Both the position numbers and the translations under genes were made by a program. From Deltaproteobacteria bacterium (GTDB lineage: Bacteria > Myxococcota_A > Polyangia > Fen-1088): a stretch of 64,000 nt of DNA. The stretch is taken from NCBI GenBank assembly GCA_016935975.1, contig JAFGPX010000259.1, positions 11,230 to 75,229 of the forward strand, read 5' to 3'. The notes beneath the pieces are model-generated. The model ran no database searches and was not told the origin of the DNA. It was given only the letters and a program-made list of their open reading frames with translations. Shown piece by piece: positions 33,069 to 41,924 of this stretch (within the stretch, counting starts at the first letter, position 1; each line of letters starts with the position of its first letter).

Positions 33069-33193
33069 GGCGCGCAATGCTACCAAGGCAGCGTCGGAAG
33101 GTCGAGCACGCCAGCGACGAGCGGGCGAAAATTGCTCACTTCCCGGCCGGCGAGTGTGTAAAAAGGAAGCATCAGCAGGACCAAGCCCACCCC

Positions 33194-34699
33194 ATGCTCA
33201 GACGATACCTTCCGGATTCCCTCACGGCGCCGTGCGTGTTTCTCATGGTTCTGGCGTGGCCGCTCGCAGCCCTTGCGGCTTCCGAAGACAGCGGCGCGCA
33301 GGCCCAGGACGAAGAGGCCGCGGATCCGGTGGCCGAGATACAGCAACTGAACCGTACCGGCATGCAGTACTTCGACGATCTCAATTACGCCATGGCAGAG
33401 AAGATGCTGCTGCAGGCGCTCGCTATGGTCGAGAAATCGGACCTGGCGCACGGGCCGGCGGGGTTGGCCACCAACGGCAACCTGGCAGTGCTCTACAGCG
33501 CCGGGCTCAGGCAACCGGACAAGGCCGTCCACCACTTCAAGAAGGCGCTGGCCATCAAGCCGGATCTGAGGCTGAGCAAGCAGCGGGCGACGCCGGAGAC
33601 CGAGGCCAACTTGGCGCGCGCCAAGGCCGAGATGGCAGGAGGCGCCGGTCCCGCGCCGGGAGCTCCCACCGCGCCCGCGGCCTCGGCCGAGAACCCCCTG
33701 AGCTGTCCGACCGGGGGGGAAATCCACCAAGGCGACGAAATCACGTTCAATTGCACGACCAGCGAGACGCTGAACCCGGCGAACGTGATGCTCTACTACA
33801 AGGCCAACGGCGCCGAGGACTACCAGGCGCTGCAGATGACCAAGGAAGAAGCGTCCGGCGGCATCACGTCATGGACGGCCAAGGTCCCAGGTGCGCACAC
33901 CCAGGCGAGCGCAGTCCCCTTCTTCGTCGAGGCAAACGATGCGGACGGCGAAAGCCTCGCTGTCTCGGGCAGCGAGGACAATCCCAGCGTCATCGTGGTG
34001 CATGGTGGAGGCGTCGCCATGGGGCCGCCACCCCTGGACGGCGAAGAAGAGGAGGAAGAAGAGGAAGAAGAGGAATACTATGAGATAGACGACGCAAACC
34101 CGCTCGCGGCTCTCGAACGGGACCGTTGGCGGGAGCACGAGGGGTCGAAGGGGACCTGGTTGCTTTCCTTGGGCATGGGTTCCGGCCTGGGCTATGCGTC
34201 CGGGCATTCCACGGAGGCGTTCGGCAAGTTCAAGGTCGGGTTCAGTCCCGGATTCGCGCCGGCGACCCTCGGCCATGCCGTGTGGGAAGTCGCCTATTTC
34301 GTGGGCCGGCAGACCGCCTTGTCGCTCGGCGGCCGGCACCAGTGGATCACCGGCGGTCCCCCCGGGACGGCGACCGGCGCGCATACTCTGCTCCTGCGCT
34401 CGCTCTTCTTCACCGAGGAGAAGGGCAAAGTCCGCTGGTACTTTGCGTGCGCCGCGGGGTGGGGCGAAGGCTTCCGCATGCAGGTCGAGGCGAACGTCAG
34501 CGACGAAGAGGGCAACCCCACCGGACAGACCGTGAAGGACACAGTGCGTGGCGGGCCATTCGTGGCCGGAATTGGCGGTGGCATGCTCTACAAGCTGGCC
34601 CGGCGTTGGCATCTGACCATCGATACGCAGGCCTTGGCCGGATTCACCCATTTCTCGGCGGTTTTCGACCTGACCGCAGGCGCGCGCTTGGTGTTCTAG
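33194..34699 (+). CDS. Secreted hypothetical protein with TPR-like N-terminal region, poly-Glu tract and C-terminal beta-rich domain
   Basis: Signal peptide (VFLMVLAWPLAALAA); run of about 12 Glu; Gly/aromatic-rich C-terminal half. Confidence 0.55.
   Translation: MLRRYLPDSLTAPCVFLMVLAWPLAALAASEDSGAQAQDEEAADPVAEIQQLNRTGMQYFDDLNYAMAEKMLLQALAMVEKSDLAHGPAGLATNGNLAVLYSAGLRQPDKAVHHFKKALAIKPDLRLSKQRATPETEANLARAKAEMAGGAGPAPGAPTAPAASAENPLSCPTGGEIHQGDEITFNCTTSETLNPANVMLYYKANGAEDYQALQMTKEEASGGITSWTAKVPGAHTQASAVPFFVEANDADGESLAVSGSEDNPSVIVVHGGGVAMGPPPLDGEEEEEEEEEEEYYEIDDANPLAALERDRWREHEGSKGTWLLSLGMGSGLGYASGHSTEAFGKFKVGFSPGFAPATLGHAVWEVAYFVGRQTALSLGGRHQWITGGPPGTATGAHTLLLRSLFFTEEKGKVRWYFACAAGWGEGFRMQVEANVSDEEGNPTGQTVKDTVRGGPFVAGIGGGMLYKLARRWHLTIDTQALAGFTHFSAVFDLTAGARLVF
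34040..34076 (+). repeat. GAA/GAG trinucleotide tract encoding about 12 consecutive Glu
   Basis: gaagaagaggaggaagaagaggaagaagaggaa, seen directly. Confidence 0.7.
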
Positions 34700-34891
34700 C
34701 CCCGCGTTTCCGGCAGCAGACTTCGCCCGGCCGGTTTGTCATCGGCGTTCCCAATGTAGCCCTGCAGGTTGTTCTCAACTGGGGGAGATGGAACGCAGTA
34801 CCACAAACACTCGGTTGCGCGGGTCCGTGGCTGTTGCCGCCGCGGTTGCGGGGATCTATCGCACTGTGCGAGACGGTAGGGTGAAGTCGTC

Positions 34892-35563
34892 ATGCAACTA
34901 GTCGTTGCGACCCCCAACGTCGCCAGCGCGGCGGTTCGAGCGGCGCTGCTCGATCCAGCGACCCTGTTTCCCTCGTGCATTCCGGTCGGCTATGCTGTGC
35001 CCGTCGCTGCCGTGCAAAAGGACAAGACCAGGGCCAAAGCCACAGAGGCGAGCGAAACCGCGCTCGCGGCCCTCTACGCGAAATACGCGCCGGCCATCTA
35101 TGCCCATTGCCGCCGCTTCATGCAGTCCCCGGCTGCGGCGAGGGACGCCACGCAAGAGGCCTTCGTGCGCGTGCTCGCGCACGGCGTGGTGTTGCCGCGC
35201 GAAGAGGAGGCCTTGCGCTACCTGTACCGCGTGGCCACCAATGTCTGTCTGAACCTGTTGCGCGAGCACAACGTGCATACGCGGGCCGCGCCCGCGCTGG
35301 CGGCGCGCGCCCAGCACGTGGGTTCGGCCGAAAGCGGGCTGGCGGATCGCGAGTTCGTCGAGGTCGTGCTCGAGCGCTGTGGGGAAGGCGGCGCGCAGGT
35401 GGCCATCATGCACTACCTCGACGGCATGTCGCAGGTCGAGATCGCCCAGGTGCTCGGTATCACGCGCCGGACGGTCTTCAATCGCCTGCGCAAGTTGGCG
35501 CGCGTGGCAGGTGAGCTGTTGCGGACGAGCCCGCGCACTGCCGTCACCAAGGAAGGAGGATAG
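34892..35563 (+). CDS. ECF-family RNA polymerase sigma factor (sigma-70 regions 2 and 4)
   Basis: Region 2 (LYAKYAPAIYAHCRRF...EAFVRV) and region 4 HTH (MHYLDGMSQVEIAQVLGITRRTVFNRLRKL). The N-terminal limit is uncertain and a GTG start downstream is possible. Confidence 0.75.
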   Translation: MQLVVATPNVASAAVRAALLDPATLFPSCIPVGYAVPVAAVQKDKTRAKATEASETALAALYAKYAPAIYAHCRRFMQSPAAARDATQEAFVRVLAHGVVLPREEEALRYLYRVATNVCLNLLREHNVHTRAAPALAARAQHVGSAESGLADREFVEVVLERCGEGGAQVAIMHYLDGMSQVEIAQVLGITRRTVFNRLRKLARVAGELLRTSPRTAVTKEGG

Positions 35564-35572
35564 CCCGAGAAG

Positions 35573-36340
35573 ATGTCCGCCTGTCCGTCACGCATCGAGA
35601 TCTCGCGCTGGGAAGCCGAGCCCGCGTGCGAGCGCCCCGCCGACTTCACGTCGCACGTGGCGGGGTGTGCCCGCTGCGCGGCAGTGCTCGAGGACATCGG
35701 CAGCGCGCGGTCGTTCCTGCTGGGCGCCGATCCGGAACAGGCCAGCGCGCGCGCCGCCCGGGCCATTGTCGAGAGGGCCCGGCAGCGCCGGGACAAGCGG
35801 CGGTGGTTGCGCATTCTGGCTCCGGCCTTCTTGGTCCCGGCCGCGGCGGCGCTGCTCTTCGCCACGAAGCCGGCACTTTTCCTCGCTGGCCAGGGCGAGC
35901 ACGGCAGCACCGGGGTCAAGGGCGGGCTGGTCCTCGAAACCTACTGCAAGCGCGGCGAGCAGGTGCTGCCTGCGGTGGACGGTCAGGATTTCCTCGCGGG
36001 TGATCGCCTGCGCTTCGCCTACACCTGCGCCCGGCCCGGATACCTCCTGGTGTTCGGTGTCGACGATCAGGGGCGGATCTTCCCCTACTACGAGGAGGGG
36101 GTGCTCGCGGGGGTGTTCGCCGAGGCTGGCGCGCGCGTGCTTCTGCCCGGCTCGGTGGAGTTGGACGGTCACCGGGGCTGGGAGCGCGTTTACGCGCTGT
36201 GGTCAGAGACCCAGTTCCGCGATGACGTCGTGCGCGCGGCGGTGGCCGCTGGACTAGCTGCGGCAGGGAATGACATACGCCGCGTAACAACTCTTGACCT
36301 GCCGGTAGAACAAGTGTCAATGCTACTACGGAGACCCTGA
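35573..36340 (+). CDS. Anti-sigma factor (zinc-finger HxxxCxxC N-terminus, single TM, periplasmic domain)
   Basis: HVAGCARCAAVLED zinc-binding anti-sigma motif, TM helix WLRILAPAFLVPAAAALLFA, and a position immediately downstream of the ECF sigma gene. Confidence 0.65.
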   Translation: MSACPSRIEISRWEAEPACERPADFTSHVAGCARCAAVLEDIGSARSFLLGADPEQASARAARAIVERARQRRDKRRWLRILAPAFLVPAAAALLFATKPALFLAGQGEHGSTGVKGGLVLETYCKRGEQVLPAVDGQDFLAGDRLRFAYTCARPGYLLVFGVDDQGRIFPYYEEGVLAGVFAEAGARVLLPGSVELDGHRGWERVYALWSETQFRDDVVRAAVAAGLAAAGNDIRRVTTLDLPVEQVSMLLRRP

Positions 36341-36341
36341 G

Positions 36342-37889
36342 ATGCGCTGCTTGGGCCTGCTTGTATTGGCGATGGGACTTGGCGTCTGTGCCACGCCAGC
36401 GTGGGCCGAGTCCGGCCAGGTTCGTTTCGGGCTCGTTGCGGGCAACAACCTGGGCCGCGATCCGGCGCGCACCTTGCGCTATGCCGAGGAGGAAGTTGGA
36501 CGACTCTCCGATCTGCTCAGGAGCAGTGGTGACTTCGACGAGGTGGTGACCTTGCGCGGGGCCAGCAAGGCCGAGATCGAAGCGGCCTTGGTGCAAATGC
36601 AGCAGCGGCTCGAGGCCGCCAGGCGCAGCGGCCGCCAGACCCTCTTCCTTTTCTACTACTCCGGGCATGGGGACAACGATGCTCTGGAGATCGGCTCCGA
36701 GCGCTTGCTGCTGCGCGACCTTCGCACGTTTCTGGAACGGCTGAAGTCGGCCGATGTGCGCGTGGCGTTCGTCGATGCGTGCCAGTCCGGCGCCCTGACC
36801 GGCGTGAAGGGCGGCAGGCGCACGCCCGGCTACGAGGTGCGTTTGGCCGACCCCGGACGCGTCAAGGGCATGGCCATCGTCACCTCTTCCACGGCCAACG
36901 AGCTGTCGCAAGAGTCGGATGACCTGCGGGGCTCCTTCTTCAGCCAGAGCATCATGGCCGGGCTGCGCGGCGCCGCGGACACCTCGCGCGACGGACAAGT
37001 GACCCTGGGCGAGGTCTACCAGTTCGCCTTCAACCGCACCCTGTCGAGCACGGCTGCCAACCTGACCGGTGGCCAGCACCCGACCTACGACTACCGCATG
37101 GCCGGTGCCGGCGAGGTCGTGCTGACGCGCACGCGGCCCCGGGACGCGCGCCTCGCCTTCGTGCGCGAGGCCGGAGCGACCTACGCGGTGGTCAGCCGCA
37201 GCAGCGGCGACGTGCTGGCCGAGGTGACGTCGAGCCCGAACGAGGACTTGTACCTGGCCGTGCCCGCCGGCGAGTACCGCTTCGTGCGGCGTACGATCGG
37301 CGAGGTTCGCGAACGCACCCTCGCGCTGGCGCCCGGCAGCGTGACCGTGGTCGAGCCGAGCGGCATGGTGAAGGTGGAACAGCCGAACGCACGCAGCAAG
37401 AGCGCGGAGATCGAGCTACGCAACCAGCTCGGGGCCTACGCCGGCCTCAGCACCTCGGTCGTCCCGGGCAGTCCCGCCTACGTCGGCACGCTGGCCTTGG
37501 CCTTCGCGCGGGATCTCGGCGCCTTTGCCCTGCGCGGGCGGGCCAGCGTGTCTTCCTTCGATGCTCAGCAGAACGTGTATCGTTCGACGCTTCTGCGGGC
37601 CGGGGTGAGCGTGGACTTGCTGCTGCCCGTGCTGCGGGTCTCCCGGTTCTCGGTGGGTCTCGGTCCCAGCGTGGGAATGCCGATCGCGCGCCAGGAGGAC
37701 ATGTTCGGCACGGTCACCAGTTCCTTCGGTCTGAGCTATGGCGCGGCGTTGGTCCTGAACGCGAGGCTCTACGGCAGGACCTGGCTTTCCCTCAGTCTCG
37801 ATGGCGGGGGTGAGGTCTTCCGTCTCGACGGGCAACGCGTCCATCGCGCCACGGGCAGCGCGTTGCTTGGCGCCGTGTTGAGCCTCTGA
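36342..37889 (+). CDS. Secreted caspase-like (peptidase C14) protein with C-terminal beta-barrel-like domain
   Basis: Signal peptide MRCLGLLVLAMGLGVCATPAWA; C14 His-Cys dyad (H109 in FLFYYSGHGDND, C147 in VAFVDACQSG); C-terminal 180 aa with alternating hydrophobic pattern; start 2 nt after the anti-sigma stop. Confidence 0.7.
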   Translation: MRCLGLLVLAMGLGVCATPAWAESGQVRFGLVAGNNLGRDPARTLRYAEEEVGRLSDLLRSSGDFDEVVTLRGASKAEIEAALVQMQQRLEAARRSGRQTLFLFYYSGHGDNDALEIGSERLLLRDLRTFLERLKSADVRVAFVDACQSGALTGVKGGRRTPGYEVRLADPGRVKGMAIVTSSTANELSQESDDLRGSFFSQSIMAGLRGAADTSRDGQVTLGEVYQFAFNRTLSSTAANLTGGQHPTYDYRMAGAGEVVLTRTRPRDARLAFVREAGATYAVVSRSSGDVLAEVTSSPNEDLYLAVPAGEYRFVRRTIGEVRERTLALAPGSVTVVEPSGMVKVEQPNARSKSAEIELRNQLGAYAGLSTSVVPGSPAYVGTLALAFARDLGAFALRGRASVSSFDAQQNVYRSTLLRAGVSVDLLLPVLRVSRFSVGLGPSVGMPIARQEDMFGTVTSSFGLSYGAALVLNARLYGRTWLSLSLDGGGEVFRLDGQRVHRATGSALLGAVLSL

Positions 37890-38176
37890 TCGGGGGCGCA
37901 CGGGGCCGGGCACTTTCCCAAGGCCCGGACATGTCCGGCACGCGGACACTTCCGGAAGGGGCGTGTACAAGGACCCTGACCTCGTGTACAGTGCACGCGA
38001 GCTTGTTGAGGGTGCCCGTCCTTTCTGTTGGTGACCGCATTCGTGGGGTTCCCACCCCTTGCCGTTCGCTTGTTGGCAAGGGCGAAGAGCCACCCAAGGG
38101 GTGGTCATGCACAGAAGGAGCAGCACCACGCACGTTTGGGGCGCCAAGCCCCTGGTTTCCAACCTTGGGAGTGACC

Positions 38177-40018
38177 ATGTTGCGCACAATGAGATTGACG
38201 GCCTTTCTCGGAACCATCCTCGTGGCAAGCGCGGCGCTGGCGGCGGAGCCGAGCAAGCCCGCCTCCGACGACAAAGCCGCGGAGAGCGGCAAGGCAGGAA
38301 CCCCAACCCCCGCTCCGACCGCGACTCCGGCGGCTGCGCCCGCCCCGGCCGCTCCGGCGGCGACTCCGGCCGCCACGCCCGCCCGGGCCGCGGTGCCGCC
38401 GCCGCCTCCTCCTCCCCCGCCCGAAGCCGATGAGGCGTCCGAGTCAGAGGCCGCTCCGGTCAAGGCCCGGAAGAAGCGGACGATCGGCTCGGCGGGTATG
38501 GATACACAGAGCACGACCATCGGCGGCGCCGTGGATCTGGGCGATGCCGCCGCGGAGAAGGACTGGCGCTTCAAGTTCAAGGGTTTCTTCCGCGCGCCCA
38601 TGCGCCTGGGTATCGACGCCAGCGGTAGCCTGACGCCGGGCGAGATGCAATACCATGCGCCGCCCGTGGTGCCCGACGGCAACTACACGCGCTGGTCGTA
38701 CACCAACCTCAATCCCGGCCCGTGGGCCGAGTTGCTTTTCCAGTACGGCAATCAGCAGGTCATGATGACCACGTCGATCGCCAGCTACAACATCACCACG
38801 GGCGGCTGGCGCGAACTGCAGGATCAGCTCGGCATCGATCGCGCCTTCTTGACTCTCAAGTTCCCCGAGGCGCTCGGCGATATCGGCGGCATGGCCTTCG
38901 ACGTGGGCATCTTCCAGAACGCCTACGGCGCCGCCGGCAAGTACGACGCCGGCGAGTACGAAACCTACGTCATCGGTCGTACCCGCATGGCCGGCGTGAC
39001 GGCGACCGCGGACTTGGAAGTCGCCGACGACGTCAAGGTCATCTTCGAGGGCGGCGGTGGGGCCAAGGTCGATCAGCAGTACCAGCGCTACGAGAGCGGT
39101 GCCGCGACCTACGACTACCCGACGTGGATGCCCTATCCGGGGAACAAGACTCAGCAGGGCACCAACATCCTCGTGCACGGTCACGCCGGTGCCCTGCTTC
39201 GGGGCGTCTTGATGGCGCAGGCCCACTACATCGGCTCCTTCGTCAAGGACAAGCGCTGGAATGTCGGCACCACGGGCGGCACATCGGGGACCTTTCCCGC
39301 CGACGGCACCGTTCCGGGCTACGGCTATATCCAGGTCGCCGGCATTGACCTGAAGCTCAATGGCGGCTGGATGGGCGACGGCTATCTCGGCTACTCCTAC
39401 ATCAAAGCGAAGAACGCCCTCACCATCAACGATTCGATCGAGGTGCTCCATTCGCAGGGCGGCTGGCAGTTCACGCAGAACTACTTCCCCACGGAATACG
39501 CGGCCGGGGTGGGTGGCAACGGCGAGATTCATACCATCGGTGGTCAGTACACCTTCAGCTTGGCTGGCTTCATGATGCGTCCCCGTCCGTTCTGGGGTCA
39601 GGCCGTCGACGTCACGATTCGTCCGTACTTCATGTACAACAAGGTCGTGGGGACGCCGGGCGGCGCGGACGACGTGACCAAGTTCAAGGGCGGCCTCGAT
39701 CTCCTGTATTCCTTCATGCCGATGATGGCGGCCGGTCTGCGCCTCGACAGCGTGAATCCGAACATGGACAACAGCGAGCAGACCTTCTACGTCGTCTCGC
39801 CCCGCCTGGTCTTCCGCAGCGAGTTCGTCACCCACGAGGCCGTCGTGTTGCAGTACTCGTTCTACAAGTACGGTGCGGCCTACACCGATCCAGCCAAGTC
39901 GGCCGCGGTGATGCCATGGCCTTATGGCCAGTACGGCACGTGGAGCATCGGCTCGGCCGGGCTCAACATGCAGCCCGACAAGCACGTGCTCTCGCTGTGG
40001 GCCCAGATGTGGTGGTAG
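38177..40018 (+). CDS. Secreted putative outer-membrane beta-barrel protein with Pro/Ala-rich N-terminal linker
   Basis: Signal peptide (MLRTMRLTAFLGTILVASAALA), PAPTATPAAAPAPAAP...PPPPPPPPP linker, Gly/Tyr/Trp-rich beta-strand pattern and aromatic C-terminus (WAQMWW). The track ORF starts at 37931 but its first 82 aa lie in palindrome-rich non-coding-looking DNA. Confidence 0.6.
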   Translation: MLRTMRLTAFLGTILVASAALAAEPSKPASDDKAAESGKAGTPTPAPTATPAAAPAPAAPAATPAATPARAAVPPPPPPPPPEADEASESEAAPVKARKKRTIGSAGMDTQSTTIGGAVDLGDAAAEKDWRFKFKGFFRAPMRLGIDASGSLTPGEMQYHAPPVVPDGNYTRWSYTNLNPGPWAELLFQYGNQQVMMTTSIASYNITTGGWRELQDQLGIDRAFLTLKFPEALGDIGGMAFDVGIFQNAYGAAGKYDAGEYETYVIGRTRMAGVTATADLEVADDVKVIFEGGGGAKVDQQYQRYESGAATYDYPTWMPYPGNKTQQGTNILVHGHAGALLRGVLMAQAHYIGSFVKDKRWNVGTTGGTSGTFPADGTVPGYGYIQVAGIDLKLNGGWMGDGYLGYSYIKAKNALTINDSIEVLHSQGGWQFTQNYFPTEYAAGVGGNGEIHTIGGQYTFSLAGFMMRPRPFWGQAVDVTIRPYFMYNKVVGTPGGADDVTKFKGGLDLLYSFMPMMAAGLRLDSVNPNMDNSEQTFYVVSPRLVFRSEFVTHEAVVLQYSFYKYGAAYTDPAKSAAVMPWPYGQYGTWSIGSAGLNMQPDKHVLSLWAQMWW

Positions 40019-40022
40019 GCCG

Positions 40023-41924
40023 ATGACGGCCGGCAGGCTGCTGCCGTGCCTCCTCGGGGTGGCGGCCTGCGTTCCCGTGGCGCAGAGCGGGCGTGGCCCA
40101 GGCGGCACGGCCGGTCCACCCGCGAGCGGCAAGACCGGCCAGGGGAACCAGCCAGCCGGCCCGCAGGCCGAGGCTCAGGGCGAAGCCAAGGTTCTGGTCA
40201 ACCAGGTCGGCTACTTCCCGGACCTGGCCAAGGTGGCGGTGGTGCGCGCGGAGGCCCAGCAGCCGCTCGAGTGGAAACTCCTGGCCGGGTGTGACCGCGA
40301 GGTGGCCTTCGGCAAGACGCAGCCAGCCGGGCGGGATGTGCCCGCGGGCGAGCATGTGCACGTCATCGACTTCTCGCCCTGGAAGGGCACGGGCGAGGGC
40401 TTCGTGCTCGCCGTGGGCGCCGACCGCAGCCGGCCCTTCGCGATCGGTACCGGGATCTACCGCAAGCTCAAGTACGACGCGCTGGCGTACTTCTATCACA
40501 ATCGTTCCGGCCTCGAGATCGCCATGCCCTTTGCCGGGGGAGATCCGTGGACGCGGCCCGCCGGCCATCTTTCCGACAAGAGCGTGCCCTGCCTGCCCGA
40601 CTCGGGCTGCGACTACTCGCTCGACGTGACCGGCGGCTGGTACGACGCGGGCGATCACGGCAAGTACGTGGTCAATGGCGGCATCTCGGTGTGGACCCTG
40701 CTCAATCTGTACGAACGGGCGGTGCATGTCGGCAAGTCGGCGGCGGCGCTGGCCGACGGGACCATGAACATCCCGGAGGCGGGCAACAAGGTCGCCGATC
40801 TGCTCGACGAGGTTCGCTGGGAGATCGAGTTCTTGCTCAAGATGCAGGTGCCCGACGGCCAGCCGCTGGCGGGCATGGTCCACCACAAGGTGCACGACGA
40901 GAAATGGACGGCGTTGCCGCTTCCGCCCCACGAAGATCCGATGCCTCGCTTTCTGCACCCGCCGTCCACCGCGGCGACGTTGAACCTGGCAGCGGTTGCC
41001 GCGCAAGCCGGCCGCATCTGGAAGAGTATCGACGGCAAGTTCGCCGCGCGTTGTGTGGCGGCGGCCGAGAAGGCCTGGGCCGCGGCCGTGGCAAACCCGG
41101 CCGTCCTGGCCAAGCCGGGAGGGGTCGGCGGCGGCCCCTACGAGGACAAGCACGTCGAGGACGAGTTCTACTGGGCGGCGGCCGAGCTCCACATCACCAG
41201 CAGACGCCCGAAGTACCGGGAGTTTCTGGCCTCCTCGCCGGACTACCTCAAGGTCAGGACACGAATGGGCGAGGGCGAGGGCGACGGTATCCCCTCGAGC
41301 ATGACCTGGCAGGACGTGGCGGCGCTAGGGACCCTCTCGCTGGCCGTGGTGCCGCGCGCGCTGCCGGCCGCGCAGAGGAAGACCGCGCGCGCTGCCGTGG
41401 TGGCGGCCGCGGACGCCTACCTGGCGATTCTCAGGACCCGCGGCTATCGCGTGCCCATCCACTGGGGCCAGAAGAACCAGTCGCCCTGGGGCAGCAACTC
41501 GTTCTTGCTCAACAACCTCATCGTGCTTGGCTTGGCCGCCGACTTCACCGACGGCCGCAAGTACACGAACGCCGTGGTCGCGGGCATGGACTACATCCTC
41601 GGCCGCAACGCTTTGGAGCAGTGCTACGTGACGGGCTACGGGGGCAAACCTCTCGAAAACCCGCACCATCGCTTCTGGGCCCACCAGAAAGACCCGAAGT
41701 TCCCGCACGCGCCGCCCGGGGCGGTTTCCGGGGGTCCCAACTCGGGGCTGCAAGATCCCTACGCAAAAGCAGCCGGCTTGCAGGGTTGCGCCCCCGACCG
41801 CTGTTTCGCCGACCACATCGAATCGTGGTCCACCAACGAGGTCGCCATCAACTGGAACGCGCCCCTTGCCTGGGTGCTGTTCTATCTCGACGAAAAGGGC
41901 GGCGCCGGGCGAGCCGGCAAGTAG
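40023..41924 (+). CDS. Glycoside hydrolase family 9 endoglucanase with N-terminal Ig-like (CelD_N) domain; probable lipoprotein
   Basis: GH9 signatures (GGWYDAGDHGKY, catalytic region HRFWAHQKD...NEVAINWNAPL); N-terminal LLPCLLGVAACVP lipobox-like sequence. Confidence 0.8.
   Translation: MTAGRLLPCLLGVAACVPVAQSGRGPGGTAGPPASGKTGQGNQPAGPQAEAQGEAKVLVNQVGYFPDLAKVAVVRAEAQQPLEWKLLAGCDREVAFGKTQPAGRDVPAGEHVHVIDFSPWKGTGEGFVLAVGADRSRPFAIGTGIYRKLKYDALAYFYHNRSGLEIAMPFAGGDPWTRPAGHLSDKSVPCLPDSGCDYSLDVTGGWYDAGDHGKYVVNGGISVWTLLNLYERAVHVGKSAAALADGTMNIPEAGNKVADLLDEVRWEIEFLLKMQVPDGQPLAGMVHHKVHDEKWTALPLPPHEDPMPRFLHPPSTAATLNLAAVAAQAGRIWKSIDGKFAARCVAAAEKAWAAAVANPAVLAKPGGVGGGPYEDKHVEDEFYWAAAELHITSRRPKYREFLASSPDYLKVRTRMGEGEGDGIPSSMTWQDVAALGTLSLAVVPRALPAAQRKTARAAVVAAADAYLAILRTRGYRVPIHWGQKNQSPWGSNSFLLNNLIVLGLAADFTDGRKYTNAVVAGMDYILGRNALEQCYVTGYGGKPLENPHHRFWAHQKDPKFPHAPPGAVSGGPNSGLQDPYAKAAGLQGCAPDRCFADHIESWSTNEVAINWNAPLAWVLFYLDEKGGAGRAGK

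Follow-up and report, generated by a model that had tools for sequence, protein, structure and literature searches.

A metacaspase-like protease with a predicted outer-membrane anchor, encoded with an ECF sigma factor and a zinc-type anti-sigma factor, as a candidate site-1 protease

Closest described systems

Regulated proteolysis of anti-sigma factors is well known, and the site-1 proteases known to carry it out are serine or metallo enzymes of the inner membrane or the free periplasm whose genes usually do not lie with those of the sigma/anti-sigma pair. Here we describe a locus in a 64,000-nucleotide (nt) stretch of DNA (referred to as the window; G+C content of ~67%) from a Deltaproteobacteria bacterium of the Polyangia (GenBank assembly GCA_016935975.1, contig JAFGPX010000259.1, positions 11,230 to 75,229 of the forward strand), in which the genes for a sigma factor of the extracytoplasmic function (ECF) type and its predicted anti-sigma factor are followed directly by a gene for a secreted caspase-like cysteine protease. 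An involvement of the caspase superfamily in anti-sigma control is not in itself new: there is an earlier proposal of this kind for DdvA, and craspase provides a demonstrated, cytoplasmic case.

DdvA is an anti-sigma factor with a fused periplasmic TPR-CHAT domain, and its CHAT domain is proposed to cut its own linker next to the transmembrane segment; DdvA lacking the CHAT domain becomes a substrate of RseP (PMC11506125). The locus described here resembles the DdvA-DdvS system in combining an ECF sigma factor, a single-pass zinc-type anti-sigma factor, and a periplasmic clan-CD His-Cys protease domain in a myxobacterial setting. In both, a flexible linker adjacent to the transmembrane segment is the proposed target of cleavage, with RseP acting once the periplasmic domain is lost. 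In DdvA, however, the CHAT domain is fused to the anti-sigma factor and would act on itself in trans within a dimer, whereas the window protease is a separate C14 enzyme with its own barrel. The window anti-sigma factor carries a small DUF4384-like sandwich instead, and no TPR or CHAT matches were found in the window protease; with 255 amino acids (aa) and a beta-sandwich only, it is not a DdvA-like TPR-CHAT anti-sigma factor. The N-terminal domains of the two anti-sigma factors match only weakly in sequence (E = 0.79). The outputs also differ, as DdvA controls CBASS/CRISPR defense genes and the candidate target in the window is an operon encoding a GH9 cellulase.

In type III-E craspase, Csx29 (TPR-CHAT) cleaves Csx30, which binds the ECF sigma factor RpoE, and Csx31 is described alongside them (bioRxiv 10.1101/2022.08.17.504292; PMC10028731). 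Some Csx30 C-terminal domains are DUF4384 domains (bioRxiv 10.1101/2022.08.17.504292). Craspase and the mechanism proposed below have in common a caspase-family protease that cuts a sigma-binding protein, and the domain that some Csx30 proteins carry is probably also that of the window anti-sigma factor. They differ in that craspase is cytoplasmic, is RNA guided via Cas7-11, and cuts after Met or Leu, whereas in the window there are no CRISPR genes with the trio, the protease is extracytoplasmic by prediction, and its predicted P1 residue is basic. In the ECF54 group, CHAT, subtilase, and carboxypeptidase proteins occur in the genetic context of the sigma factor, proteolytic control has been proposed, and an anti-sigma factor is described as lacking (PMC8999054). 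A caspase-superfamily protease conserved beside an ECF sigma factor is common to ECF54 and the window, but a canonical anti-sigma factor, absent from ECF54 by that description, is encoded in the window.

Orthocaspases and metacaspase-like proteins are abundant in bacteria, where discussion of them usually turns on cell death; to our knowledge, little has been established about what they cut or do in nature, and the literature searched contained no orthocaspase for which a physiological substrate of the anti-sigma kind has been defined. The window protease resembles metacaspases and orthocaspases (TbMCA2, AtMC4/AtMC9, Yca1, and cyanobacterial enzymes) in its fold, its HG...DxCxSG dyad, its acidic S1 positions, a candidate autoprocessing site past the Cys, and a recurrent association with DUF4384, a domain for which fusions to proteases, orthocaspases included, have been found repeatedly (PMC7475262, PMC6426788). 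The window protease differs from them in being secreted, fused to an outer-membrane barrel, and genetically tied to an ECF pair.

Two further comparisons concern the wiring of the system. Classical regulated intramembrane proteolysis (DegS/RseA/RseP/sigmaE, PrsW/RsiW, and Prc in cell-surface signaling) shares with the mechanism that we propose for the window a site-1 cut, a site-2 metalloprotease, release of the sigma factor, and apparent autoregulation. The difference lies in the candidate site-1 protease of the window, which is a dedicated caspase-fold cysteine enzyme with a predicted anchor in the outer membrane. The FecA-FecR-FecI system has a similar three-part layout over both membranes, encoded together. 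In the window, however, the barrel is 8-stranded and appears to be only an anchor, and the outer-membrane partner bears a protease. The trio gives no TonB_dep_Rec, Plug, STN, or FecR matches, its barrel is OmpA/OmpX-like, and we do not count it as a FecA/FecR/FecI system.

A sequence-only reading of this DNA, made by a model without database searches, had held that a caspase-like protease under dedicated ECF control is not a described regulatory unit. This stands as far as the split arrangement is concerned: no publication on an outer-membrane C14 protease, a DUF4384 anti-sigma factor, and a shared Lys-Gly motif was found in a limited literature collection, and the main text of the ECF re-classification paper makes no mention of caspase, C14, CHAT, or DUF4384 (PMC7826278). 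It does not stand in its wider form, given the caspase-family precedents for ECF anti-sigma control in DdvA-DdvS and craspase.

The conserved trio and its proteins

The three genes and the sites within them that matter to the argument are as follows (window positions; the evidence is given in parentheses).

35012 to 35563, + strand: ECF sigma factor, 183 aa from a probable GTG start (longest open reading frame from ATG 34892)
35573 to 36340, + strand: single-pass class I (zinc-type) anti-sigma factor with a periplasmic DUF4384-like beta-sandwich (profiles, AlphaFold2 model)
35918 to 35923, + strand: anti-sigma K116-G117, proposed site-1 cleavage site (conservation, linker end in the model)
36342 to 37889, + strand: secreted C14 (metacaspase-like) cysteine protease (PF00656, AlphaFold2, Foldseek, family profile)
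36666 to 36782, + strand: catalytic dyad His109 (36666 to 36668) and Cys147 (36780 to 36782), with D145 as an S1-pocket equivalent (alignments)
36807 to 36812, + strand: protease K156-G157, proposed autoprocessing site (conservation; disordered loop 149 to 172)
37422 to 37883, + strand: C-terminal 8-stranded outer-membrane beta-barrel anchor, as predicted (AlphaFold2, Foldseek)

The sequence-only reading had described three co-directional genes, at 34892 to 35563, 35573 to 36340, and 36342 to 37889, with gaps of 9 and 2 nt. All three are indeed on the + strand at these positions, and the first gap (35564 to 35572) is 9 nt, but the second is a single nucleotide (36341). A generic sigma-70 promoter scan of positions 34500 to 38400 found no promoter, and a terminator scan of the same region returned two terminator-like sites, no more than expected by chance.

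We surveyed the neighborhoods of protease relatives by scanning one genome per species; 319 stretches encode such a relative, and the best 80 of the 319 were compared. In 65 of the 80 loci, the sigma gene, a gene for a 240- to 330-aa protein with a single transmembrane segment, and the protease gene follow one another in this order on one strand. Six more loci have the partners, but a contig end cuts them or a hidden Markov model was needed for their detection, and four (L050, L053, L059, and L062) have the permuted order of protease, sigma factor, and anti-sigma factor. Altogether, all three genes are found in at least 75 of the 80 loci. The only loci without partners are L029 and L033, and in L035 (6728 to 8308) an N-terminal fragment of the sigma factor runs in frame into the protease with no anti-sigma gene present, which is probably a deletion or an assembly artifact. 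The carriers are labeled Myxococcota/Polyangia, Fibrobacterota, Acidobacteriota, and Spirochaetota, and in the last three phyla the trio is kept even though the protease is only 32 to 40% identical. The survey thus lends strong support to the dedicated unit that the sequence-only reading had suggested, and we consider it very probable that the protease and the anti-sigma factor are obligate functional partners.

Some high-GC contigs carrying the module are labeled "uncultured Enterobacterales" or "Bifidobacterium breve" (L038, L039, L052, L053, L055, L057, L061, L066, L069, L074, and L075); these labels are almost certainly binning or labeling errors.

The first gene of the trio encodes an ECF (group 4) sigma factor, as the sequence-only reading had called it: the protein matches Sigma70_r2 at 7.6e-12 and Sigma70_r4_2 at 2.9e-8, with no r3 match, and scores 66.2 bits against the sigma70-ECF model TIGR02937 (cutoff, 42.9). 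Translation probably starts at GTG 35012 and not at ATG 34892, because relatives keep GCCGTGGAAAA at GTG 35012 and the sequence 5' of this codon is conserved as DNA, third codon positions included, and not as protein.

The second gene encodes a 255-aa protein with HVAGCARC at residues 28 to 35 (H28-x3-C32-x2-C35) and a single hydrophobic helix at about residues 79 to 97, in line with the HxxxCxxC motif and single transmembrane helix noted from the sequence earlier. An N-terminal domain with this motif, encoded by a gene that adjoins a sigma gene, is characteristic of class I zinc anti-sigma factors (ZAS), and the protein is predicted to bind and inhibit its sigma factor and to bind zinc. A profile built from 42 diverse orthologues matches ChrR (1.1e-3) and RslA (3.2e-3) and, weakly, RsiW and DdvA, and zf-HC2 matches 8 of these 42. 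Among 143 representatives clustered at ≤50% identity, H28, C32, and C35 are present in 142 to 143. About half of the distant orthologues do not have HxxxCxxC but retain the transmembrane helix and the periplasmic domain. The family is large, with 4,909 representatives at 50% identity matching at E values up to 1e-3 and 1,734 at 1e-10.

The periplasmic part of the anti-sigma factor matches DUF4384 (PF14326) over residues 141 to 213 with E = 6.3e-5 and 23.4 bits, just under the 27-bit Pfam cutoff. The same model is matched independently by 16 of the 42 orthologues (E up to 0.01), many close homologues bear a precomputed PF14326 match, and an identical protein is named "DUF4384 domain-containing" by NCBI. 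Both this protein and the protease have identical counterparts in a metagenome-assembled genome of an uncultured "Deltaproteobacteria" organism (Myxococcota/Polyangia-like). The AlphaFold2 model (72 homologues; mean predicted local distance difference test score [pLDDT], 80.0) consists of N-terminal helices at residues 7 to 50, a long helix at 54 to 97 that includes the transmembrane segment, a disordered juxtamembrane linker at 98 to 116 (pLDDT of <50), and a beta-sandwich from residue 120. A Foldseek search with the sandwich found no significant solved relative, only generic Ig-like sandwiches (best E = 0.011). In one protein of another architecture (P0395; 758 aa), the anti-sigma periplasmic domain is matched in four stretches as tandem DUF4384-like repeats.

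The third gene encodes the protease. Peptidase_C14 (PF00656) matches residues 31 to 222 with E = 8.8e-13 and 48.9 bits (cutoff, 21.4), and the protein starts with a Sec signal peptide, MRCLGLLVLAMGLGVCATPAWA/ES, signal peptides being conserved in the family. A lipoprotein-type signal (LGVC) was considered and rejected, since it has Val at position -1 and a Cys that homologues do not share. The AlphaFold2 model (74 homologues; mean pLDDT, 79.8) has three parts: a caspase-type alpha/beta domain at residues 27 to 240, a beta-sandwich at 260 to 337, and an 8-stranded barrel at 361 to 514. The sandwich (252 to 345) is not homologous to the DUF4384 domain of the anti-sigma factor (hhalign probability, 0.8%). 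The caspase domain has pLDDT values mostly of 80 to 95, apart from a disordered loop at 149 to 172 (pLDDT of <50) that directly follows the catalytic Cys. When this domain was compared with the PDB using Foldseek, it matched caspase-7, -3, and -9 and Sf-caspase-1 at ~1e-5; for caspase-7, the match is to 1shj_B (E = 1.5e-5; template-modeling score of 0.75, normalized to the target).

The motifs YSGH109G and DAC147QSG align to the catalytic His and Cys of legumain and metacaspases, and none of the residues H109, D145, and C147 varies in the 126 homologues aligned (74 close, 52 distant). By sequence, dyad motifs, and fold, the protein therefore belongs to the C14 family and the caspase/hemoglobinase fold, and the dyad and the C14 assignment proposed by the sequence-only reading, which depended on His109 and Cys147 falling on a C14 fold, are borne out by Pfam, AlphaFold2, and Foldseek; the signal peptide that it noted is present as well. 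Within C14, the protease is closer to metacaspases and orthocaspases (C14B) than to caspases, with DxCxSG and two acidic S1-pocket positions: all seven solved structures matched by the family profile are metacaspases, among them AtMC9, AtMC4, Candida MCA1, and Yca1 (1.3e-7 to 2.9e-4). In the profile alignments, DAC147QSG pairs with DSCHSG of AtMC4 and LRYAExD/E with LRGCxND. By way of AtMC4, E51 (D in most distant members) and D145 align to Asp95 and Asp211 of TbMCA2, which accommodate basic P1 residues (PMC4357240, PMC6426788), and orthocaspases cut after basic residues (PMC6426788). The window protease accordingly looks active and basic specific, and it would be expected to cleave after Arg or Lys, because its pocket residues are acidic and the Lys-Gly motifs described below are invariant.

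The small C-terminal beta-barrel that had been suspected from the sequence is confirmed by the model, with 8 strands at pLDDT values of >90 and Foldseek matches to the OmpA transmembrane domain, Ail, OmpX, NspA, and OmpW (7.6e-8 to 3e-5). The barrel region is retained in 74 of 77 homologues, and 56 of the 77 end in Phe, as a beta-signal would. Barrels of the OmpA/OmpX type have both termini on the periplasmic side. From this we predict that the outer membrane carries the protease domain on its inner side, which would place the domain in the periplasm together with the anti-sigma linker.

The shared Lys-Gly motif and its possible meaning

In the alignment of the 42 diverse anti-sigma orthologues, in which mean column identity is 22%, K116 and D198 are the only invariant columns and G117 is nearly invariant. 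Of the 143 representatives, 138 have Lys and 4 have Arg at position 116 (Lys or Arg in 142 of 143), 135 have Gly at position 117, and at position 114 (P3) 90 have Arg and 23 have Gly. The disordered linker ends with K116, shortly before the first strand begins at residue 120. The protease has a Lys-Gly of its own in the disordered loop past the catalytic Cys, K156-G157. It is invariant in 77 of 77 homologues, and the Lys lies exactly 9 residues past the Cys in 63 of 63 paired loci. This position is comparable to that of the inter-subunit cleavage site of caspase-3 and caspase-7, which lies ~12 residues after the Cys.

The protease loop and the anti-sigma linker share the consensus T/V-[R/G]-x-K-G-G, as the window and three other loci illustrate.

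Window: protease loop ALTGVKGG, anti-sigma linker GSTGVKGG
L054: protease loop AITRLKGG, anti-sigma linker DDIRLKGG
L041: protease loop EMTRMKGG, anti-sigma linker SSIRMKGS
L079: protease loop VVTAFKGG, anti-sigma linker DHVTFKGK

Over positions P6 to P2, partners from the same locus have 56 identities, compared with 42.9 ± 4.5 when partners are shuffled, and 4 of 2,000 shuffles reach 56, by statistics that ignore kinship among the loci. Since only Lys and Arg exchange at position 116, the linker is exposed, and the adjacent gene encodes a protease with a pocket suited to a basic P1 residue, K116-G117 is what a cleavage site would be expected to look like, which is short of proof that it is one.

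From the observed domain architectures, predicted topology, conservation of the trio, and motifs and their placement, we infer the proteolytic steps, cleavage sites, RseP involvement, sigma-dependent promoters, and signal of the following scheme. At rest, the ECF sigma factor would be held at the inner membrane by the single-pass zinc-type anti-sigma factor, whose periplasmic DUF4384-like sandwich would hang on a flexible linker of ~20 residues ending at K116-G117. The metacaspase-like protease would be exported via Sec, and its own barrel would fasten it to the outer membrane on the periplasmic side. Upon a signal, it would become active, probably by a self-cut at K156-G157, and would then cut the anti-sigma factor after K116 (site-1 cleavage). 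An RseP-type site-2 protease and cytoplasmic proteases would finish the truncated anti-sigma factor, and the freed sigma factor would transcribe from TTCCCA-N15-TTGTT, a candidate promoter motif that precedes its own operon and, in this lineage, also precedes an operon for a 613-aa secreted protein and the GH9 cellulase. That the protease is the site-1 protease of the anti-sigma factor, cutting at K116 and thereby releasing the sigma factor, is a reading that we find plausible and adopt tentatively, stopping short of calling it probable. A signaling role directed at the anti-sigma factor is suggested by the near-obligate linkage, which holds even where the gene order is permuted, together with the mirrored Lys-Gly and the acidic S1 positions, and on these grounds it fits better than the envelope-stress or lysis effector that the sequence-only reading had imagined.

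Several points weigh against cleavage of the anti-sigma factor by the protease. The similarity at P6 to P2 is a modest effect, and its statistics ignore kinship. The proteases of L029 and L033, which have no adjacent partner, still keep Lys-Gly; the motif thus belongs to the protease in its own right, and its presence alone is no proof that the two proteins are cut at a common site. In the anti-sigma factor, Lys-Gly could be conserved for structural reasons at the start of the DUF4384 fold. The window protease ends in ...VLSL, with Leu in place of the Phe typical of outer-membrane beta-signals. The candidate promoter motif is not the canonical GGAAC...CGT ECF promoter, and another regulator could bind it instead. 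Finally, the protease and the anti-sigma factor would be made from one transcript, so that a mechanism of latency is needed.

Other explanations assign the protease a different place in the system. It could be an effector made under sigma factor control that kills the cell or acts on envelope or secreted proteins by degrading or remodeling them, with DUF4384 sensing the signal and general (DegS- or Prc-like) proteases processing the anti-sigma factor. Target genes are common in ECF operons, the gaps of 9 and 1 nt with no internal promoter or terminator signal point to one shared transcript, and a protease that keeps Lys-Gly even without an adjacent partner would suit such a role. A mere target, however, is not expected to remain beside the pair in loci of several phyla (at least 75 of the 80 compared), including those in which the gene order is permuted. 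Nor does this explanation account for the invariant basic residue and Gly in the anti-sigma linker or for their resemblance to the protease loop, and PADLOC gives no toxin, lysis, or defense signature; we regard it as unlikely. The layout of the cluster, with an outer-membrane barrel, an inner-membrane anti-sigma factor, and an ECF sigma factor, is also that of cell-surface signaling, in which transducers are reported to protect anti-sigma factors from proteolysis (PMC11637429). A nonproteolytic relay like that of FecA-FecR-FecI can thus be envisaged, in which the outer-membrane protein binds the periplasmic domain of the anti-sigma factor, using its caspase fold for binding or sensing, and a conformational change or lost contact exposes the anti-sigma factor to other proteases. 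The invariance of His109, Cys147, and the acidic pocket positions over the 126 sequences argues for catalysis instead, and there is no TonB-dependent transducer, plug or signaling domain, or FecR domain, which makes the relay decidedly unlikely.

The resemblance between linker and loop could also be turned around, with the anti-sigma factor as a tethered pseudosubstrate or inhibitor of the protease whose destruction frees the sigma factor and the protease together. The linker motif would then mimic the protease's own loop, and the sandwich does resemble the Bacillus intracellular proteinase inhibitor weakly (3isy; E = 0.044), as one among many generic Ig-like matches. These fold matches are not significant, however, Gly at P1' and the interchange of Lys and Arg suit a cleaved site equally well, and we know of no precedent for an anti-sigma factor acting as a protease inhibitor, so that we hold this arrangement to be highly unlikely. 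The prospect that the trio is an antiphage or conflict system, like DdvA-DdvS or caspase-containing defense islands, seems very remote. Caspase-family proteases and ECF pairs do control defense islands in Myxococcus (PMC11506125), but PADLOC gave only a weak, generic caspase match (6.1e-5; 20 bits) and, for the partners, nothing beyond a marginal sigma factor match, and did not assign the trio to a known antiphage defense system. The neighbors, moreover, are housekeeping or carbohydrate genes (an aconitase-like open reading frame, a TPR protein, and GH9), and the conserved second copy of the candidate promoter faces the GH9 operon.

If the protease does act as the site-1 protease, it would represent a new class of such enzymes, a caspase-fold cysteine protease on the outer membrane that activates an ECF sigma factor, and it would link the self-cleavage proposed for the CHAT domain of DdvA, the craspase-Csx30-sigma axis, and the fusions of DUF4384 to proteases. 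The main interest of the module is that it provides a testable substrate for the bacterial relatives of caspases: it offers a falsifiable candidate substrate, the anti-sigma factor cut after Lys116, and a read-out, the promoter motif that occurs twice in the locus. A bolder version, which we consider doubtful, is that the trio forms a trans-envelope sensor spanning phyla, with the protease fixed in the outer membrane, its substrate fixed in the inner membrane, and cleavage reporting the state of the envelope, the output in Polyangia being GH9 and the secreted protein. Such a sensor could report the distance between the membranes, the integrity of the outer membrane or peptidoglycan, Ca2+, or a periplasmic polysaccharide fragment, and a metacaspase-like protease of bacteria would then, for the first time, have a defined role and a physiological substrate.

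Candidate promoters and neighboring genes

The features that flank the trio or overlap its upstream end are as follows.

34748 to 34773, + strand: candidate ECF-type autoregulatory promoter, TTCCCA-N15-TTGTT copy 1, 5' of the sigma operon
34788 to 34901, + strand: remnant of a lipoprotein gene, 37 codons (MERSTTN...RDGR...) (comparison with relatives)
34967 to 34996, + strand: conserved block TTTCC-N-GGCTATGCT, 15 nt 5' of GTG 35012
37964 to 37992, + strand: sigma-70-like promoter of the next operon, TGTACA, 17-nt spacer, TACAGT (footprint across 11 loci)
38049 to 38074, + strand: candidate sigma-dependent promoter, TTCCCA-N15-TTGTT copy 2, 103 nt 5' of the gene for the 613-aa protein
38177 to 41924, + strand: probable regulon operon, 613-aa secreted protein and GH9 cellulase (Pfam, motif copy 2, synteny)

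ECF sigma factors typically autoregulate. We derived TTCCCA-N15-TTGTT from phylogenetic footprints of two upstream regions, that of the sigma operon and that of the gene following it. It has exactly two matches in the window, both on the + strand, compared with 0.01 expected from shuffled sequence, a post hoc figure in that the pattern comes from these very sites. The motif is present in 12 of 12 clade-1 relatives and occupies both syntenic positions in 11 of them; L007 and L024 have one copy each, with contigs that end before the other position. Clade-2 loci have a variant, TTCCCAC-N-GCGTGTT, upstream of the sigma gene. In this second Polyangia clade, the 613-aa/GH9 operon is inverted and divergent from the sigma gene, and there is one copy of the motif on each strand, each facing its own operon. 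The orientation of the motif thus follows that of the genes, which fits a promoter, and we infer that TTCCCA-N15-TTGTT is the cognate promoter of this sigma factor, serving both autoregulation and the target operon. The sequence-only reading had depended on an ECF-dependent promoter serving the protease, and a candidate for one does precede the operon.

The canonical ECF promoter pattern (GAAC-N15-19-CGT) was essentially absent when sought upstream of the sigma gene in 64 upstream regions. In distant loci, the region upstream of the sigma gene has CTTTCC-N16-GGGTCC in 8 of 36 cases and GTCCAA in 16 of 36; this may be the equivalent promoter of another clade.

The operon downstream of the trio consists of the gene for the 613-aa protein (38177 to 40018, from ATG 38177) and, after a gap of 4 nt, the GH9 gene (from its ATG, 40023 to 41924). 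Features of the 613-aa protein are a signal peptide, a linker rich in Pro and Ala that includes a run of nine Pro residues, and the C terminus ...WAQMWW. The protein belongs to no Pfam or NCBIfam family, none of its 266 detected homologues is named, and its gene always occurs with a GH9 gene. The GH9 cellulase matches Glyco_hydro_9 (E = 9e-102) and CelD_N and has a lipoprotein-type signal. The operon adjoins the trio in two different arrangements. The 287-nt gap that precedes it, the secreted protein (taken there for a large beta-barrel protein), and the GH9 gene had all been recognized in the sequence-only reading, and the gap, described there as palindrome dense, contains four short inverted repeats. 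The presence of GH9 in the candidate target operon and of the module in Fibrobacterota hints at a control of polysaccharide degradation, a link supported by the Polyangia loci alone.

Between the TTCCCA-N15-TTGTT motif and the sigma gene, most close relatives have a further gene, which opens the operon and encodes a Cys-rich lipoprotein of ~200 aa (MERR...SCGTG...RDGRGEVF...; no Pfam family), for example, at L001:4319-4945, L002:167-793, and L008:4932-5525. An open reading frame of 197 to 210 aa that starts ~40 nt past the motif is found in L001, L002, L004 to L008, L024, and L030. The window retains only an N-terminal remnant of this gene, and in L003 and L009 the remnant continues in frame into the sigma open reading frame. 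The conserved block at 34967 to 34996 is present in 19 of the 64 upstream regions, all from two Polyangia clades and with invariant third codon positions. It occurs once in the window and was rejected as a regulon motif; a basal promoter with a sigma-70-like -10 element (TATGCT) is possible.

In 22 distant loci, where the protease is <45% identical, a fourth gene directly follows the protease gene, with gaps of ~2 to 4 nt. It encodes a protein of 300 to 370 aa with a lipoprotein-type signal and no Pfam family, is sometimes duplicated (L037:6778-7884, L064:3542-4507, L077:8539-9480), and is absent from the window. A relationship between this gene and the upstream lipoprotein gene of the close clade was considered and rejected, as no homology was found.

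Upstream of the trio, the open reading frame at 33077 to 34699 encodes a protein of 540 aa that contains a TPR region and 12 consecutive Glu residues. In the close clade, it keeps its synteny with the trio at a variable distance, sometimes with a PD40/TolB-like gene in between (L003:3153-5084), and we see no evidence that it belongs to the module. Just 3' of the protease stop codon, positions 37897 to 37955 contain inverted repeats I1 and I2, which are copies of a palindrome of the GGACATGTCC type and might function as an operator or form a terminator stem that lacks a T-tract. Similar palindromes (GGACATGTCC and GGACGTCC) occur at the same place in L001, L002, L008, and L030.

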